9,631 bases of DNA from a virus (Duplodnaviria; Heunggongvirae; Uroviricota; Caudoviricetes): IMG/VR virus record IMGVR_UViG_2737471845_000027; one strand, 5' to 3'. Under the pieces are notes generated by a model. That model was not told the DNA's origin. It saw only the letters and a program-made list of their open reading frames with translations, and did not search any database. Positions 2,185 to 9,631 of this stretch are shown here, piece after piece. A program made the position numbers and the translations under genes. The stretch's first letter is position 1, and each line of letters opens with the position of its first letter.

Positions 2185-2719
2185 ATTAATAACTCTCTAC
2201 TGTAAGGGTATTAAAATGCTATCACAAACTCTCGCTGTAGGGGTATAGCCGAGACCACCGAGCCTGAAGTGGTAAAAAGACAGGCACACAACACGAAAGC
2301 GCACGGCGAGGCTGTTAGTTCATAAATGGTCTGTCGTTAAATTTACGTCGACCGTGCGCTTCCGGTTGTGGCACTCCGCGAAATGGCGCGGTGGTAAGTA
2401 TGGCGGGGTTATTCATTCCCAGTTGAGGACACCGGGTTGTCAGGTTGACCATACGCTTAAGTGACAACCCCGCTGCAACGCCCTCTGTTATCAATTTTTT
2501 GGTGACGTTTGGCGGTATCAGTTTTACTCCGTGACTGCCCTGCCGCCCCTTTTTAAAGTGAATTTTGTGATGTGGTGAATGCGGCTAAGCGCACGCGGAA
2601 CAGTTAAAAGCATCAGTGTTATGGGTGGATTATCCGGCGTTAATTGTTAACTGGTTAACGTCACCTGGAGGCACCAGGCACCGCATCAACAAAGTTCATT
2701 TGTAAAAATGGAGATAATT
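2185..2719. promoter_or_regulatory. 535-bp non-coding region between divergent sieB and kilR (pL-equivalent position)
   Basis: No ORF longer than about 33 codons on either strand. GC-rich core at roughly 2280..2600. 9-bp inverted repeat gggttgtca (2434..2442) / tgacaaccc (2462..2470). Weak stem then ccccttttt at 2511..2554. Candidate sieB promoter on the minus strand near 2200..2240. Confidence 0.4.
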
Positions 2720-3557: not shown

Positions 3558-6209
3558 ATGAGCACAAAACCACTCTTCCTTTTACGGAAAGCGAAAAAAT
3601 CATCCGGTGAACCTGACGTCGTCCTGTGGGCAAGCGACGATTTTGAATCAACCTGTGCCACTCTGGACTACCTGATCGTTAAGTCAGGTAAAAAACTGAG
3701 CAACTATTTTAAAGCTGTTGCCACAAATTTTCCTGTCGTTAATGACCTTCCCCCTGAAGGTGAGATCGATTTTACCTGGAGTGAACGCTATCAACTCAGC
3801 AAAGACTCCATGACCTGGGAACTAAAACCGGGAGCAGCGCCAGACGACGTTCACCATCAGGAGGATGCACCGGAAACCGAAGAACCGACGGGAGGCCAGG
3901 AAGAAAACGCGCAGGCAGACGCCCACGAGGATTGCCAGGATTGCGAAGTCTCTGTAGCCACTTTGCGGTTCACACAGCGTCTTCTGCACATTTTTACGTA
4001 TGCAGCCGGGGATCGAAAATACCTGCATCATGCCACCCGTGAACAACGCAAACACATTACTGCTCTTGAGATGGATCAGGAAAACAGCTATGTCCAGAAT
4101 CTGCTGTTGGCCATACGCAGCATGGCAGAACCGACAACTCTGGATAATGCCGCCCTGCTCCGCCTGACTGATGCAATTAAGGCAGTGTTCTCTATCACGA
4201 AAAAACATCAGCCCTATGAATTTAAGAATTTCATTTCAGCCTGGCTGGATACCGAACACATTGATCGCGGTCTTCTGACAAAGGAATGGCGAAAAGGGAA
4301 TCGTGTTTCACGCATCACTCGCACGGCTTCCGGTGCTAATGCTGGCGGCGGGAACCTCACCGATCGCGGCGAAGGTTTCGTCCACGATCTGACGTCACTG
4401 GCGCGCGATGTAGCCACTGGCGTACTGGCCCGTTCAATGGACGTGGACATCTATAACCTTCATCCGGCACACGCTAAACGCATTGAGGAAATTATCGCTG
4501 AAAATAAACCACCCTTTTCTGTTTTCCGCGACAAATTCATCACCATGCCTGGCGGGCTGGATTATTCCCGCGCCATCGTGGTTGCGTCCGTGAAAGAAGC
4601 ACCAATTGGGATCGAGGTCATCCCCGCACACGTCACTGAATATCTGAACAAAGTACTGACTGAAACCGATCATGCCAACCCTGATCCGGAAATCGTGGAT
4701 ATTGCCTGCGGTCGCTCCTCGGCCCCGATGCCGCAGCGAGTAACAGAAGAAGGAAAACAGGACGATGAAGAAAAACCACAACCATCTGGCGCAATGGCAG
4801 ATGAACAGGCAACGGCTGAAACAGTGGAACCGAATGCAACTGAACATCATCAGAACACGCAGCCGCTGGATGCTCAGTCACAGGTAAATTCTGTTGATGC
4901 GAAATATCAGGAACTGCGGGCAGAACTCCATGAAGCCCGGAAAAACATTCCATCAAAAAATCCTGTCGATGCCGATAAATTGCTTGCTGCATCACGTGGT
5001 GAATTTGTTGACGGAATTAGCGACCCGAACGATCCGAAATGGGTTAAGGGGATCCAGACTCGCGATTCTGTGTACCAGAACCAGCCAGAAACGGAAAAAA
5101 TCAGCCCGGATGCGAAACAACCTGAGCCAGTAGTGCAACAGGAACCGGAAATAGTCTGCAATGCCTGCGGTCAGACTGGCGGGGATAACTGCCCTGACTG
5201 TGGTGCGGTGATGGGCGACGCAACATACCAGGAAACATTCGGTGAAGAGAATCAGGTTGAAGCTAAGGAAAAAGATCCGGAGGAAATGGAAGGCGCTGAA
5301 CATCCGCACAATGAGAATGCTGGCAGCGATCCGCATCGCGATTGCAGTGATGAAACTGGCGAAGTCGCAGATCCCGTAATCGTAGAAGACATAGAGCCAG
5401 GTATTTATTACGGAATTTCGAATGAGAATTACCACGCGGGTCCCGGTGTCAGTAAGTCTCAGCTCGATGACATTGCTGATACTCCGGCACTGTATTTGTG
5501 GCGTAAAAATGCCCCCGTGGACACTACAAAGACAAAAACGCTCGATTTAGGAACCGCTTTCCACTGCCGGGTACTTGAACCGGAAGAATTCAGTAACCGC
5601 TTTATCGTAGCACCTGAATTTAACCGCCGTACAAACGCCGGAAAAGAAGAAGAGAAAGCGTTTCTGATGGAATGCGCAAGCACAGGAAAAACGGTTATCA
5701 CTGCGGAAGAAGGCCGGAAAATTGAACTCATGTATCAAAGCGTTATGGCTTTGCCGCTGGGGCAATGGCTTGTTGAAAGCGCCGGACACGCTGAATCATC
5801 AATTTACTGGGAAGATCCGGAAACAGGAATTTTGTGTCGGTGCCGTCCGGACAAAATTATTCCTGAATTTCACTGGATCATGGACGTGAAAACCACAGCG
5901 GATATTCAACGATTCAAAACGGCTTATTACGACTACCGCTATCACGTTCAGGATGCATTCTACAGTGACGGTTATGAAGCACAGTTTGGTGTGCAACCAA
6001 CTTTCGTTTTTCTGGTTGCCAGCACAACTGTTGAATGCGGACGTTATCCGGTTGAGATTTTCATGATGGGCGAAGAAGCAAAACTGGCAGGCCAGCAGGA
6101 ATATCACCGCAATCTGCGGACCCTGGCTGACTGCCTAAATACCGATGAATGGCCAGCTATTAAGACGTTATCACTGCCCCGCTGGGCTAAGGAGTATGCA
6201 AATGACTAA
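3558..6209 (+). CDS. recE: Exodeoxyribonuclease VIII (RecE)
   Basis: 883-aa ORF with GAGGT RBS. N-terminus [26 protein letters not shown] and C-terminal nuclease region ([13 protein letters not shown]...) recognised as RecE. Internal Cys4 motif [15 protein letters not shown]. Confidence 0.95.
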
Positions 6210-7035
6210 GCAACCACCTATCGCAAAAGCCGATCTGCAAAAAACTCAGGGAAACCGTGCACCAGCAGCAGTTAACGATAAGGATGTGCTGTGCGTGATT
6301 AACAGCCCGGCAATGAAAGCGCAACTGGCAGCAGCTCTGCCACGTCACATGACAGCGGAACGCATGATCCGCATTGCTACAACAGAAATCCGTAAAGTAC
6401 CGGAACTAAGAAACTGTGACTCGACGAGTTTTATCGGTGCCATCGTACAGTGTTCACAGCTCGGACTTGAGCCAGGTAGCGCCCTCGGTCATGCATATCT
6501 GCTACCGTTCGGCAACGGAAAAGCAAAAAACGGTAAGAAGAACGTACAGCTGATCATCGGTTATCGCGGCATGATCGACCTTGCCCGTCGATCAGGTCAA
6601 ATCATCAGTCTGTCAGCTCGTGTTGTCCGTGAATGTGATGAATTCAGCTATGAACTTGGCCTTGATGAAAAACTGGTTCATCGTCCCGGTGAAAACGAAG
6701 ATGCCCCTATAACCCATGTCTATGCTGTTGCAAAACTGAAAGACGGAGGAGTGCAGTTTGAAGTCATGACCCGCAAACAGGTAGAAAAAGTTCGCGACAC
6801 ACACAGCAAGGCGGCAAAAAACGCAGCGTCAAAAGGGGCGTCGTCCATCTGGGATGAACACTTTGAAGACATGGCCAAAAAGACAGTGATACGAAAACTG
6901 TTCAAGTATCTGCCGGTATCTATTGAAATCCAGCGTGCAGTATCGATGGATGGAAAAGAGGTGGAAACAATTAATCCAGACGACATATCGGTTATAGCCG
7001 GGGAATACAGTGTAATCGATAATCCAGAAGAATAA
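6202..7035 (+). CDS. recT: Recombinase RecT (single-strand annealing protein)
   Basis: Track ORF 6145..7035; true start taken as ATG 6202 ([23 protein letters not shown]...) with AAGGAG at 6188..6193. Overlaps the recE stop by 8 nt. Confidence 0.9.
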
Positions 7036-7079
7036 TCCAGCCTGGCGGTGTAATGCACCGCCAACGTGAGATAGTTTTT

Positions 7080-7286
7080 ATGACAAAAACTTTGAGATAT
7101 GACGATGTTAAACCATGTCCGTTTTGTGGTTGTCCATCAGTAACGGTGAAAGACATTTCAGGATATTACCGGGCAAAATGCAACGGATGCGAATCCCGAA
7201 CTGGCTATGGTGGAAGTGAAAAAGAAGCGCTCGAAAGATGGAATAAACGAACCACTGAAAATATTAATGGAGGCGTTCATGTATAA
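7080..7286 (+). CDS. ralR: RalR / Lar (restriction alleviation protein; type I toxin DNase)
   Basis: Internal ATG of track ORF 7053..7286. 68-aa product MTKTLRYDDVKPCPFCGCPSVTVKDISGYYRAKCNGCESRTGYGG... with two Cys pairs, recognised as RalR. Confidence 0.85.
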   Translation: MTKTLRYDDVKPCPFCGCPSVTVKDISGYYRAKCNGCESRTGYGGSEKEALERWNKRTTENINGGVHV

Positions 7287-7467
7287 AATTACCGCTACAA
7301 TTGAAAAGGAAGGTGGCACTCCTACTAACTGGACAAGATATTCAAAATCTAAACTAACGAAATCAGAATGCGAAAAAATGCTCTCAGGTAAAAAAGAAGC
7401 AGGCGTTTCCAGAGAGCAGAAAGTAAAACTGATAAATTTTAATTGCGAGAAACTTCTGTCCTCGTGA
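7279..7467 (+). CDS. ydaC: YdaC-like small protein
   Basis: Track ORF 7207..7467; GGAGG at 7270..7274 is 4 nt before ATG 7279 (MYKITATIEKEGGTPTNWTRYSKSK...). Overlaps the ralR stop by 8 nt. Start could instead be ATG 7267. Confidence 0.65.
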   Translation: MYKITATIEKEGGTPTNWTRYSKSKLTKSECEKMLSGKKEAGVSREQKVKLINFNCEKLLSS

Positions 7468-7573
7468 GTTGCATTATATCCAAATTAGAACTTCATAGCT
7501 GATTATTAAAAATCAATCACGTCCGCCAGTATTCTGTATATTTACTGGCGGTCATATCGTAAGAGGTATGGCA

Positions 7574-7855
7574 ATGAATCTTGTGACACTCAAAACGTGG
7601 GGGAAACTCAGATATCCGGATAATCCACCATCAATATCAACGCTGAGACGATGGGCAAGGAATGGAAACATTTATCCTGCACCTGAACTACACGGGAGGA
7701 GTTACAGGGTGGTTCCGGAGGCTTTCTATATCAACCCAAATAAGGTTGATACCGATATAACACACCATCAGCCTAATGGGCGACAAGGGAGAGACAGTCC
7801 GTTACTGGAGAAGTTAAAACATGCAGCGGAAAAAATACGATCCCAATTTGCCTAA
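7574..7855 (+). CDS. xis: Excisionase (lambda Xis-like)
   Basis: Track ORF 7568..7855; AAGAGG at 7561..7566 favours the second ATG (7574). Motif ISTLRRWARNGNIYPAPELHGRSYRVVPEAF resembles lambda Xis. The 3' end overlaps the int start, as in lambda. Confidence 0.75.
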   Translation: MNLVTLKTWGKLRYPDNPPSISTLRRWARNGNIYPAPELHGRSYRVVPEAFYINPNKVDTDITHHQPNGRQGRDSPLLEKLKHAAEKIRSQFA

Positions 7856-8897
7856 AAACTTAACATATCGAAGGAGGGACAAAGCATATTACTGGCGCAA
7901 CCCTCTGACGAAAGAAGAATTTACACTAGGTAAAATTTCAAGAAGAGATGCAGTAGCGCAGGCAATTGAAGCAAATCATTATATATACAAAAACTACTCT
8001 CCTGCTGCCTTAATTGAAAAGCTTAAAGGGTTCGACTCATTTACTATGGCAGACTGGATTGAACGTTACAAAACGATTCTTATAAGGAGAAAAGTGTCCA
8101 GAAATACTTATAAAATCCGGGTAAATCAACTGGAGACAATAAAAGAAAAATTGGGAGAGATTTTACTGACAGAAATAACCACTCGCCATATTGCCGAGTT
8201 TCTTGATTTGTGGATTGAAGGAGGGAAAAACACAATGGCAGGATCAATGCGTTCTGTGTTGTCTGATATGTTTCGCGAGGCCATTGTTGAAGGACGTATA
8301 TCTCAAAATCCAGTCACGCCAACAAGAGCACCGAAAATAGTAGTTACAAGAGAACGACTGAAACTAAAGACATACAACTGCATCAGGGAGGCAGCAGATC
8401 AACTTCCGGCATGGTTCCCATTAGCTATGGATTTAGCCCTTGTAACAGGACAACGTCGCGAAGACATAACGAATATGCGGTTCAGTGATATTTATGATGA
8501 CCGTCTCCACATCAGGCAAATTAAGACAGGAATGATGATTGCTATCCCTCTGTCACTCAGCCTTCCTGTCGCTGGTCTACGGCTTGGTACAGTAGTTGAA
8601 CGATGCCGCCTGGTAAGCCGGGGAGATTATCTAATCAGTGCCGGGATTAGAAAAAACAGCCCTGACGGCAGCATTCACCCGGATGGCCTGACAAAAAAAT
8701 TTGTCGCAGCCAGAAAATTAACAGGTATCCAGTTCAGTGAAAACCCACCAACTTTTCACGAGATCAGAAGTCTGGCTGGACGATTGTACAAAGAAACATG
8801 TGGAGAAGAATTTGCCCAGCGCCTACTTGGTCACACATCGGAGAAGACAACAAAAATGTATCTTGATGAGCGAGAAAAAACGTACTTACTGCTCTGA
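7821..8897 (+). CDS. int: Tyrosine site-specific integrase (lambda Int family)
   Basis: 358 aa. Conserved blocks [12 protein letters not shown] (Arg), [10 protein letters not shown] (His-x-x-Arg) and [13 protein letters not shown] (His and catalytic Tyr). Last gene before the host junction. Confidence 0.9.
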
Positions 8898-8962
8898 TTT
8901 TAACGTAAATGGATTGTTAAATGTATATTGGTTGTGATATAACCAAAAAAGACCGGAATACA

Positions 8963-8994
8963 GAAATTCGAGTAAATTTCGGGGAATTTCGGGG
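8963..8994 (+). repeat. Three tandem 10-11-bp direct repeats; candidate Int arm-type (P'-like) sites
   Basis: gaaattcgag (8963..8972), aatttcgggg (8975..8984), aatttcgggg (8985..8994). Located between int and the predicted core, as P'1-P'3 are in lambda attP. Confidence 0.5.
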
Positions 8995-9002
8995 AGACGC
9001 TT

Positions 9003-9015
9003 GCAACTAATTGAT
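9003..9015 (-). promoter_or_regulatory. IHF-consensus site (H'-like) between the arm repeats and the predicted core
   Basis: Minus-strand sequence aATCAAttagTTg matches WATCAANNNNTTR exactly. Confidence 0.4.
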
Positions 9016-9028
9016 TTTAAATACAATT

Positions 9029-9131
9029 AAAAAGAGACCGAATACGATTCCTGTATTCGGTCCAGGGAAATGGCTCTTGGGAGAGAGCCGTGCGCTAAAA
9101 GTTGGCATTAATGCAGGCTTAGTTGCCTTGC
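9029..9131 (-). ncRNA. sdsR: SdsR (RyeB) sigma-S-dependent small RNA
   Basis: Minus strand reads GCAAGGCAACTAAGCCTGCATTAATGCCAACTTTTAGCGCACGGCTCTCTCCCAAGAGCCATTTCCCTGGACCGAATACAGGAATCGTATTCGGTCTCTTTTT, which I recognise as SdsR. 3' terminator hairpin spans 9036..9062, followed by a T-run. Confidence 0.8.
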
Positions 9132-9134
9132 CCT

Positions 9135-9145
9135 TTAAGAATAGA
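9135..9145 (-). promoter_or_regulatory. Sigma-S-type extended -10 element for sdsR
   Basis: Minus strand TCTATTCTTAA, close to the sigma-S -10 consensus TCTATACTTAA, ending 4 nt before the SdsR 5' end. Confidence 0.55.
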
Positions 9146-9218
9146 TGACGACGCCAGGTTTTCCAGTTTGCGTGCAAAATGGTCAATAAAAAGCGTGGTG
9201 GTCATCAGCTGAAATGTT

Positions 9219-9260
9219 AAAAACCGCCCGTTCTGGTGAAAGAACTGAGGCGGTTTTTTT
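9219..9260. terminator. Bidirectional rho-independent terminator (yebY on the minus strand; plus-strand transcripts)
   Basis: Two-tier hairpin ccgcc/ggcgg plus gttct/agaac, with an A-run at 9219..9223 and a T-run at 9254..9260. Lies 30 nt beyond the yebY stop. Confidence 0.75.
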
Positions 9261-9289
9261 ATTGGAAATCAAAAGGCTATTTTAGGTAA

Positions 9290-9631
9290 TTAACAGAGTT
9301 TTTCAGCTCGTTCTATAAACGGTGCCAGACTCATTTTTTCGCCGGGATTGTTAGGATCATCAATCTGAATCACCGAAATGGGTTGGGCTTTAGTCTTCCC
9401 ACTGGCAACTTCCTTTTGTGCGATATCGTTTAAAGGATACTGCACGAGGGTACTTGGGTTAATGGCATACAAAGCATTACCCGGTCTGCAAGTCAGCATC
9501 ACCTCTTCGCGATTAAACGCCCATTTGTCTTTACCCACTTCAAAACGACTGACGGTAATCACCTGCGGTGCAGCCAGCGCCGCTGCAGAACTGGTGAGTA
9601 ACAGAAACGTCAGAATACTTTTTTTCATCAT
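9290..9631 (-). CDS. yebY: YebY-like secreted protein with Sec signal peptide (host chromosomal gene)
   Basis: 113-aa ORF. N-terminus [22 protein letters not shown] is a signal peptide with an AxA cleavage motif. Sequence recognised as YebY. Start codon sits at the window edge, so RBS and promoter are off-window. Confidence 0.85.

Follow-up and report, generated by a model that had tools for sequence, protein, structure and literature searches.

A lambdoid prophage junction in Escherichia coli at which the sdsR terminator hairpin probably serves as attachment site and ryeA lies without its native promoter

The window analysed here (9,631 nucleotides of the Caudoviricetes record IMGVR_UViG_2737471845_000027 of IMG/VR) very probably contains, at positions 8898-9262, the integrase-proximal attachment junction of a lambdoid prophage whose bacterial attachment site is the terminator hairpin of sdsR, a small RNA gene. 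The phage attachment site carries its own copy of the last ~32 bp of sdsR, and strands appear to be exchanged between 9044 and 9053, flanked by the two halves of the terminator stem, so that integration rebuilds a full-length sdsR with its sigma-S promoter and its terminator intact. The gene on the other strand, ryeA, is split by the same event: its sigma-70 promoter and first 37 nt are left beside pphA at the opposite prophage end, which in a complete lysogen is ~55 kb distant, and only the body of ryeA (K-12 +38 to +272) remains opposite sdsR. As in lambda-type junctions, an arm-binding tyrosine integrase and an excisionase adjoin the site, and a core sequence is common to four sites. The junction is the E. 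coli instance of a phenomenon published for Salmonella in 2008, and its biology is to that extent a known theme; no description of an E. coli case of insertion at sdsR was found in the literature, where the site appears as ryeB, a known phage target in Salmonella (Bobay et al., PMC3603311), and in island names such as 'Cfr111.52.RyeB'.

The window is the integrase-bearing end of a lambdoid prophage whose early region is Rac-like, together with the adjoining yebY-sdsR/ryeA locus; the closest complete E. coli genomes cover 82% of the window at 96% identity. The open reading frames on the prophage side, left of the junction, encode RecE exonuclease VIII (3558-6209), RecT (6145-7035), a Lar/RalR-type protein, a DUF1187 protein, an excisionase and an integrase, and an Rfam scan of the window identified four RNA genes (SdsR/RyeB, SraC/RyeA, RalA and DicF). 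The integrase carries the arm-DNA-binding domain of lambda Int (PF09003, 28.1 bits, cut-off 22), and the int DNA is 96% identical to the int of phage record PP818812. The protein-coding genes nearest the junction are:

7568..7855, plus strand: excisionase, 95 aa (Pfam PF07825 Exc, 52.1 bits); in strains R1 and RM8385 the homologous prophages bear the same annotation.
7821..8897, plus strand: lambda-type tyrosine integrase, 358 aa (PF00589, 61.8 bits; PF22022, 41.3 bits), pointing toward the attachment junction.
9290..9631, minus strand: yebY (DUF2511), the conserved host gene upstream of sdsR (PF10709, 151.4 bits), labelled yebY in every matching genome.

The RalA antitoxin RNA (7285-7463, minus strand; Rfam RF02694, 217.6 bits) lies opposite the Lar/RalR-type open reading frame (7053-7286, plus strand; PF14354), and RalA/RalR is a second RNA-based toxin-antitoxin module, on the prophage side, ~1.6 kb from SdsR/RyeA. 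The prophage early region also contains the DicF small RNA (2497-2548, plus strand; Rfam RF00039, 71.9 bits).

On the host side of the junction, sdsR is complete:

9029..9132, minus strand: sdsR (ryeB), full length (Rfam RF00111, 116.4 bits at 9128..9029; the K-12 annotation maps to 9132..9029).
9138..9144, minus strand: -10 region of sdsR, of sigma-S type, with C at -13 followed by TATTCT (9143..9138), identical to K-12.

The Rfam match spans model positions 1-100 (gathering score 38), and the gene differs from that of K-12 at a single base, 9043, which is T in the window and C in K-12. The fold is the same as that of K-12 SdsR, at -35.2 kcal/mol for both, and a terminator scan identified the SdsR terminator as an 11-pair stem (9063..9035) followed by CTTTTT. 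The dependence of sdsR on sigma-S and the role of the C at -13 have been described (PMC3333887, PMC6610125). The Rfam match, together with a promoter identical to that of K-12, bears out the original prediction that SdsR is intact and has a near-consensus sigma-S -10 element.

What remains of ryeA is its distal portion:

9028..9262, plus strand: host-derived body of ryeA (sraC), corresponding to K-12 RyeA +38 to +272 (RF00101, K-12 annotation and alignment).

In the K-12 sequence (L001), ryeA occupies 1567-1838 on the plus strand and sdsR 1605-1708 on the minus strand, RyeA starting 38 nt beyond the 3' end of SdsR, and the likely -10 of ryeA is TATGGT at 1554-1559, preceded by TGT. A pairwise alignment finds the window identical to K-12 from 9028 (L001 1604) to 9300, where the aligned region ends, except at 9043; left of 9028, neither this alignment nor megablast finds any similarity to K-12. 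When 8600-9631 was compared by megablast with 5426 complete E. coli genomes, nearly all matched from query base 429, which is window position 9028. The window thus agrees with the K-12 locus in sdsR, its sigma-S promoter, and the body and terminator of RyeA, but because identity to K-12 starts only at 9028 the native sigma-70 promoter of RyeA, with its three starts 38 nt past the SdsR 3' end, and nucleotides +1 to +37 are absent, replaced by the integrase-proximal phage arm, and pphA does not lie downstream of sdsR. The RyeA terminator is kept (stem of 9224-9228 with 9249-9253, T-run 9254-9260), and the annotated 3' end of K-12 RyeA maps to 9262, in agreement with the end at 9260 given beforehand from the letters of the window. 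That reading had also held that the 5' region of RyeA might be phage-derived, which the end of K-12 identity at 9028 and the location of the K-12 promoter at the far prophage end in RM8385 confirm; host identity extending upstream of 9000, which would have spoken for a native promoter, was not seen.

The limits of the attachment core were defined by comparing the empty site of K-12, the phage site of PP818812, both prophage junctions of E. coli O103 strain RM8385 and the window, with strain R1 in addition:

9028..9059: 32-bp common core TAAAAAGAGACCGAATACGATTCCTGTATTCG, the SdsR terminator hairpin, found at the bacterial and phage sites and at each of the two junctions.
9046..9052: 7-nt hairpin loop GATTCCT, between perfect 10-bp inverted repeats (9036-9045 and 9053-9062).

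On the left the core is bounded by the start of host identity at 9028 and on the right by the end of identity to the phage site at 9059; PP818812 matches the window at 96% from the start of the integrase to 9059 and diverges beyond. Three polymorphisms within the core distinguish the four sites: positions 9034/9043/9054 read G/C/A in the empty bacterial site (K-12), A/T/T in the phage site (PP818812), A/T/A in the integrase-side junction of RM8385 and G/C/T in its pphA-side junction, and they segregate reciprocally in that strain. Among 124 core-containing loci, 120 of which (L005-L124) came from a scan of IMG/VR, the base at 9043 is linked to the left flank and that at 9054 to the right flank in 104 of 105 integrase-side and 12 of 13 pphA-side junctions, the linkage being broken in one IMG/VR junction of each class. 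The three polymorphisms appear to bracket strand exchange between 9044 and 9053, within the 7-nt loop or directly adjoining it, which would make the last ~16-25 nt of SdsR, comprising the 3' half of the terminator and the U-tail, phage-supplied. This zone, 16-25 nt from the SdsR 3' end at 9029, fits the published location of attachment in the last ~23 bp of ryeB. The loop itself is the likely overlap region, with putative core-type integrase sites on either side. The original prediction had placed the beginning of prophage DNA exactly at the 3' end of SdsR; this stands for the break in identity, at 9028, but not for the recombination point, which probably lies inside SdsR.

The complete lysogen RM8385 has a prophage of ~55 kb between yebY and pphA. 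At its pphA-side junction the K-12 ryeA promoter is followed by RyeA +1 to +37, the core and then the other phage arm. The displaced promoter in RM8385 (L245 44844-45658) points into the prophage, and 814 bp downstream of it, in the same orientation, is nleG7, a type III effector gene. The record PP818812.1 is labelled 'Actinobacillus phage vB_Apl-pPE4' (Actinobacillus pleuropneumoniae), a host label that looks doubtful; its integrase and phage attachment site are 96% identical to those of the present E. coli prophage, and its core is identical to the enterobacterial sdsR terminator. The core was found in two records of isolated phage genomes only, so that most of the evidence comes from prophages. 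That the site is active in integration and excision is suggested by 228 occupied and 5191 empty sites and by one free-phage record.

The DNA between the integrase gene and the core has the organization of a phage attachment arm:

8898..9027: integrase-proximal arm of the phage attachment site, equivalent to lambda P', with a layout identical to the PP818812 arm and without similarity to K-12.
8975..8993, plus strand: two tandem AATTTCGGG repeats, 10 bp apart (2 matches in the window against 0.27 expected).
9004..9016, plus strand: IHF-consensus site CAACTAATTGATT (YAANNNNTTGATW), an exact match to the consensus, between the arm repeats and the core.

Conservation of the arm was seen across 27 related arms, of which 18 are distinct. 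The AATTTCGGG repeats are predicted to be arm-type integrase binding sites, and many unrelated arms have equivalent tandem TTTCGG/TTTCGT repeats equally far from the core; IHF would be expected to bind at 9004..9016, and several other arm families also have a TTGAT(T) element at the position of this site. Lambda Int is a heterobivalent tyrosine recombinase, and its phage attachment site contains arm sites, IHF sites and a 7-bp overlap. The present system resembles it in the arm-binding, central and catalytic domains of the integrase, in the excisionase gene upstream of int, in the abutment of int on an arm with tandem repeats and an IHF consensus, and in the inverted repeats of the core around a 7-bp spacer, and differs from it in core sequence and target, which here is the terminator of a small RNA; the contacts between protein and DNA are predicted. 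The arm also contains a degenerate second copy of the attachment core and SdsR terminator (AAAAAAGACCGGAATACAGAAATTCG...) at about 8945-8985, with a local alignment score of 26 against 14.8 +/- 2.4 in shuffled sequences (maximum 28), which may represent an additional integrase site or the remnant of an older junction, and GAATACAG(A/T)AATTCGG-like stretches occur in the arms of other families (L125, L202 and L210). The possibility that the left flank of the empty K-12 site is itself an old phage arm was considered, MAFFT having aligned the K-12 flank AAAAAACGCTGGACTCAGACAGTAGAGT with AAAAAAGACCGGAATACAGAAATTCGAGT of the arm at equal distance from the core, but the alignment was rejected as evidence of homology, as 505 of 1000 dinucleotide shuffles reached its score of 16.

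SdsR regulates porins, TolC and MutS, and RyeA is to our knowledge its only known antagonist. Overproduction of SdsR is toxic and is counteracted by RyeA (Choi et al. 2018, 2019; PMC6610125), and the earlier description of the two as a toxin/antitoxin-like RNA pair agrees with Choi et al. 2019. The K-12 ryeA gene has three adjacent start sites, used by sigma-70 RNA polymerase, and when transcribed it interferes with sdsR, whose own read-through yields an sdsR-pphA transcript; inactivation of the ryeA -10 led to earlier SdsR and raised read-through about 4-fold (PMC6610125). When the sraC promoter was deleted, SdsR rose by a factor of only about 1.5 in E. coli and Salmonella; species differ in the sraC promoter region as well as in which gene lies 3' of sdsR (PMC3333887).

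The closest precedent is phage PhiW104 and the ryeA/ryeB insertion hot spot of Salmonella enterica (Balbontin, Figueroa-Bossi, Casadesus and Bossi, J Bacteriol 2008, as summarized in PMC7380047, PMC3603311 and PMC6610125). In the passage of PMC7380047 that cites Balbontin 2008, PhiW104 is placed in the last 23 bp of ryeB with alteration of the 5' part of ryeA, and its lysogeny in strain DT104 is described as lowering ryeA and raising ryeB. By that published description the two cases are alike in attachment within the last ~23 bp of sdsR, in an sdsR that remains whole and in a ryeA 5' part made of phage DNA; many different inserts occupy the one site across genera. They differ in host, which here is E. 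coli, and in the Rac-like early region of the present prophage (recE, recT, ralR/RalA and DicF); moreover, less RyeA and more RyeB have been measured in Salmonella only, whereas the E. coli junction is known from sequence. A shift in the SdsR/RyeA balance upon lysogeny is therefore a reasonable expectation but, given the precedent in Salmonella, not a new one. By analogy with PhiW104, the lysogen would be expected to have less RyeA-type RNA, with an altered 5' end, and to show a modest increase or an earlier appearance of SdsR during growth. The E. coli junction also resembles integration at the 3' ends of tRNA and tmRNA genes, where the target is likewise the symmetric stem-loop of a small RNA gene and the 3'-end copy brought by the element restores that gene; sdsR/ryeA differs in being bidirectional, and the restoration of sdsR unavoidably beheads ryeA on the other strand.

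With the promoter of ryeA at the far end of the prophage, any plus-strand RNA across sdsR in the lysogen would have to start in phage DNA. Candidate sources would be either of two weak promoter-like sites, or read-through from int, which is considered because a scan of 8800-9400 found no plus-strand terminator between the int stop codon and the terminator of RyeA. The two sites are:

9001..9027, plus strand: candidate promoter-like element TTGCAA (9001-9006), 15-bp spacer, TACAAT (9022-9027), with a predicted start near 9034.
8900..8929, plus strand: second promoter-like site TTAACG-18-TATATT, directly behind the stop codon of int and in the variable part of the arm (listed by a consensus scan; 11.1 bits with the rough sigma-70 matrix described below).

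Transcription over sdsR might consist of xis-int read-through, with the consequence that a RyeA-like antisense RNA would be tied to integrase expression and that SdsR could pair with this read-through RNA from int to form a substrate of RNase III; this is possible but doubtful. The orientation of int (7821-8897), on the plus strand and aimed at sdsR, is as such an explanation would have it, as are the result of the terminator scan and the SdsR hairpin, which on the plus strand is without a T-run behind it. However, the scan also misses the known terminator of RyeA, which makes its negative result weak, and integrase transcription is usually low in a stable lysogen. Read-through in the opposite direction, from sdsR, would run antisense into int, and the displacement of pphA from the downstream side of sdsR precludes an sdsR-pphA transcript.

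The arm might instead supply a real replacement promoter at 9001-9027, from which a RyeA of ~229 nt would cover nearly all of SdsR, the balance between the two RNAs being either kept or placed under the control of the phage and IHF; this seems rather unlikely. The -10 element matches the consensus at 5 of 6 positions, A2 and T6 included, and the -35 element at 4 of 6, the element is kept in 15 of the 18 distinct related arms, and Salmonella lysogens are described, in the relevant passage of PMC7380047, as still making some RyeA with a changed 5' part. A rough sigma-70 matrix based on compilation frequencies assigns 9.4 bits to the element and only 7.1 bits to the K-12 ryeA promoter region, which is experimentally verified; by that score a functional replacement, perhaps even a stronger promoter, is conceivable, but within the 9.6-kb window 28 sites reach or exceed the score of the element. 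Since the matrix ranks the element above a verified promoter and yet level with the background, it cannot decide function and was rejected as a judge. A 15-bp spacer is poor for sigma-70, and it is on account of this spacer that a consensus scan, which allows 16-18 bp, does not list the element. The -35 hexamer overlaps the IHF-consensus site, which attachment function alone would conserve, and other phage families at the site are without a -10 at that position. Among the 18 distinct related arms the -10 is TGCAAT, without the key A2, in two and TAAAAT in one, a TTGTAA variant is also seen in related arms, and the 9001-9027 block is no more conserved than the block at 8946-8995, so conservation of the hexamers is uninformative as a sign of selection. 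The original prediction of a plus-strand TTGCAA-15-TACAAT element is exact as to sequence, but its score is not above chance, and as the promoter of RyeA it is disfavored by its spacer, its overlap with the IHF site, its background score and its variable -10. The simplest reading is that the function of the phage attachment site conserves 9001-9027 and that any promoter activity would be incidental.

A further reading, which we regard as improbable, is that antisense control of SdsR passes to the prophage in lysogens of phages of this family and that the stationary-phase host RNA pair and the expression of the integrase regulate each other, with RyeA-type RNA arising from the IHF-overlapped arm promoter or from int read-through and sigma-S-driven read-through of sdsR running antisense into int. 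Such an arrangement would resemble the sib retroregulation of lambda, but built from a host small RNA.

That the native promoter of RyeA is intact and the prophage merely lies beside the locus is practically excluded, as the SraC/RyeA match to Rfam RF00101 (178.9 bits, gathering score 37, at 9025..9169 on the plus strand), although it spans the full length of the model (positions 1-145), is to a model that begins at K-12 RyeA +35 and leaves out the promoter and the true 5' end, and the alignment break at 9028 and the promoter sequence at the pphA-side junction of RM8385 refute it. With the promoter and the first 34 nt outside the model, a full-length Rfam match to RyeA is no proof of an intact gene, which is a lesson for the annotation of ryeA in general. 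RefSeq records over the junction list the integrase as the sole feature under a 301-bp match and name no ncRNA.

The attachment junction at sdsR is present in 228 of the 5426 complete E. coli genomes (about 4%) and the uninterrupted K-12-type site in 5191, the two together accounting for all but 7. A junction with 100% identity occurs in 11 RefSeq genomes, 13E0780 among them. Carriers of the junction include O103:H2, O111:H8, O45:H2, O55:H7 and some O157:H7 strains, and many are Shiga-toxin-producing, enteropathogenic or enterotoxigenic. Since sdsR in these carriers faces no native ryeA promoter and is uncoupled from pphA, their stationary-phase RNA regulation may differ from that of K-12.

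Beyond E. coli, dozens of unrelated left flanks are joined to this core in IMG/VR and in genomes that represent species of many enterobacterial genera; in most of the phage-type flanks tandem TTTCGG/TTTCGT repeats lie at a distance of 45-65 nt from it, and an element containing TTGAT separates the repeats from the core. Of the 118 species representatives that could be used, a full integrase homologue lies beside the 3' end of SdsR in 12 and an integrase fragment in 10, and 8 more have two or more arm motifs, for which the background rate is 0.3%. The DNA just 3' of sdsR is hypervariable in Enterobacteriaceae, an integrase homologue, an integrase fragment or arm-type repeats being present there in at least 30 of the 118 species representatives. 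The C/T state at the base equivalent to 9043 differs between genera, and the K-12-type ryeA -10 stretch, TATGGTT, is also found in Pseudescherichia (L129 and L203), much closer to the core.
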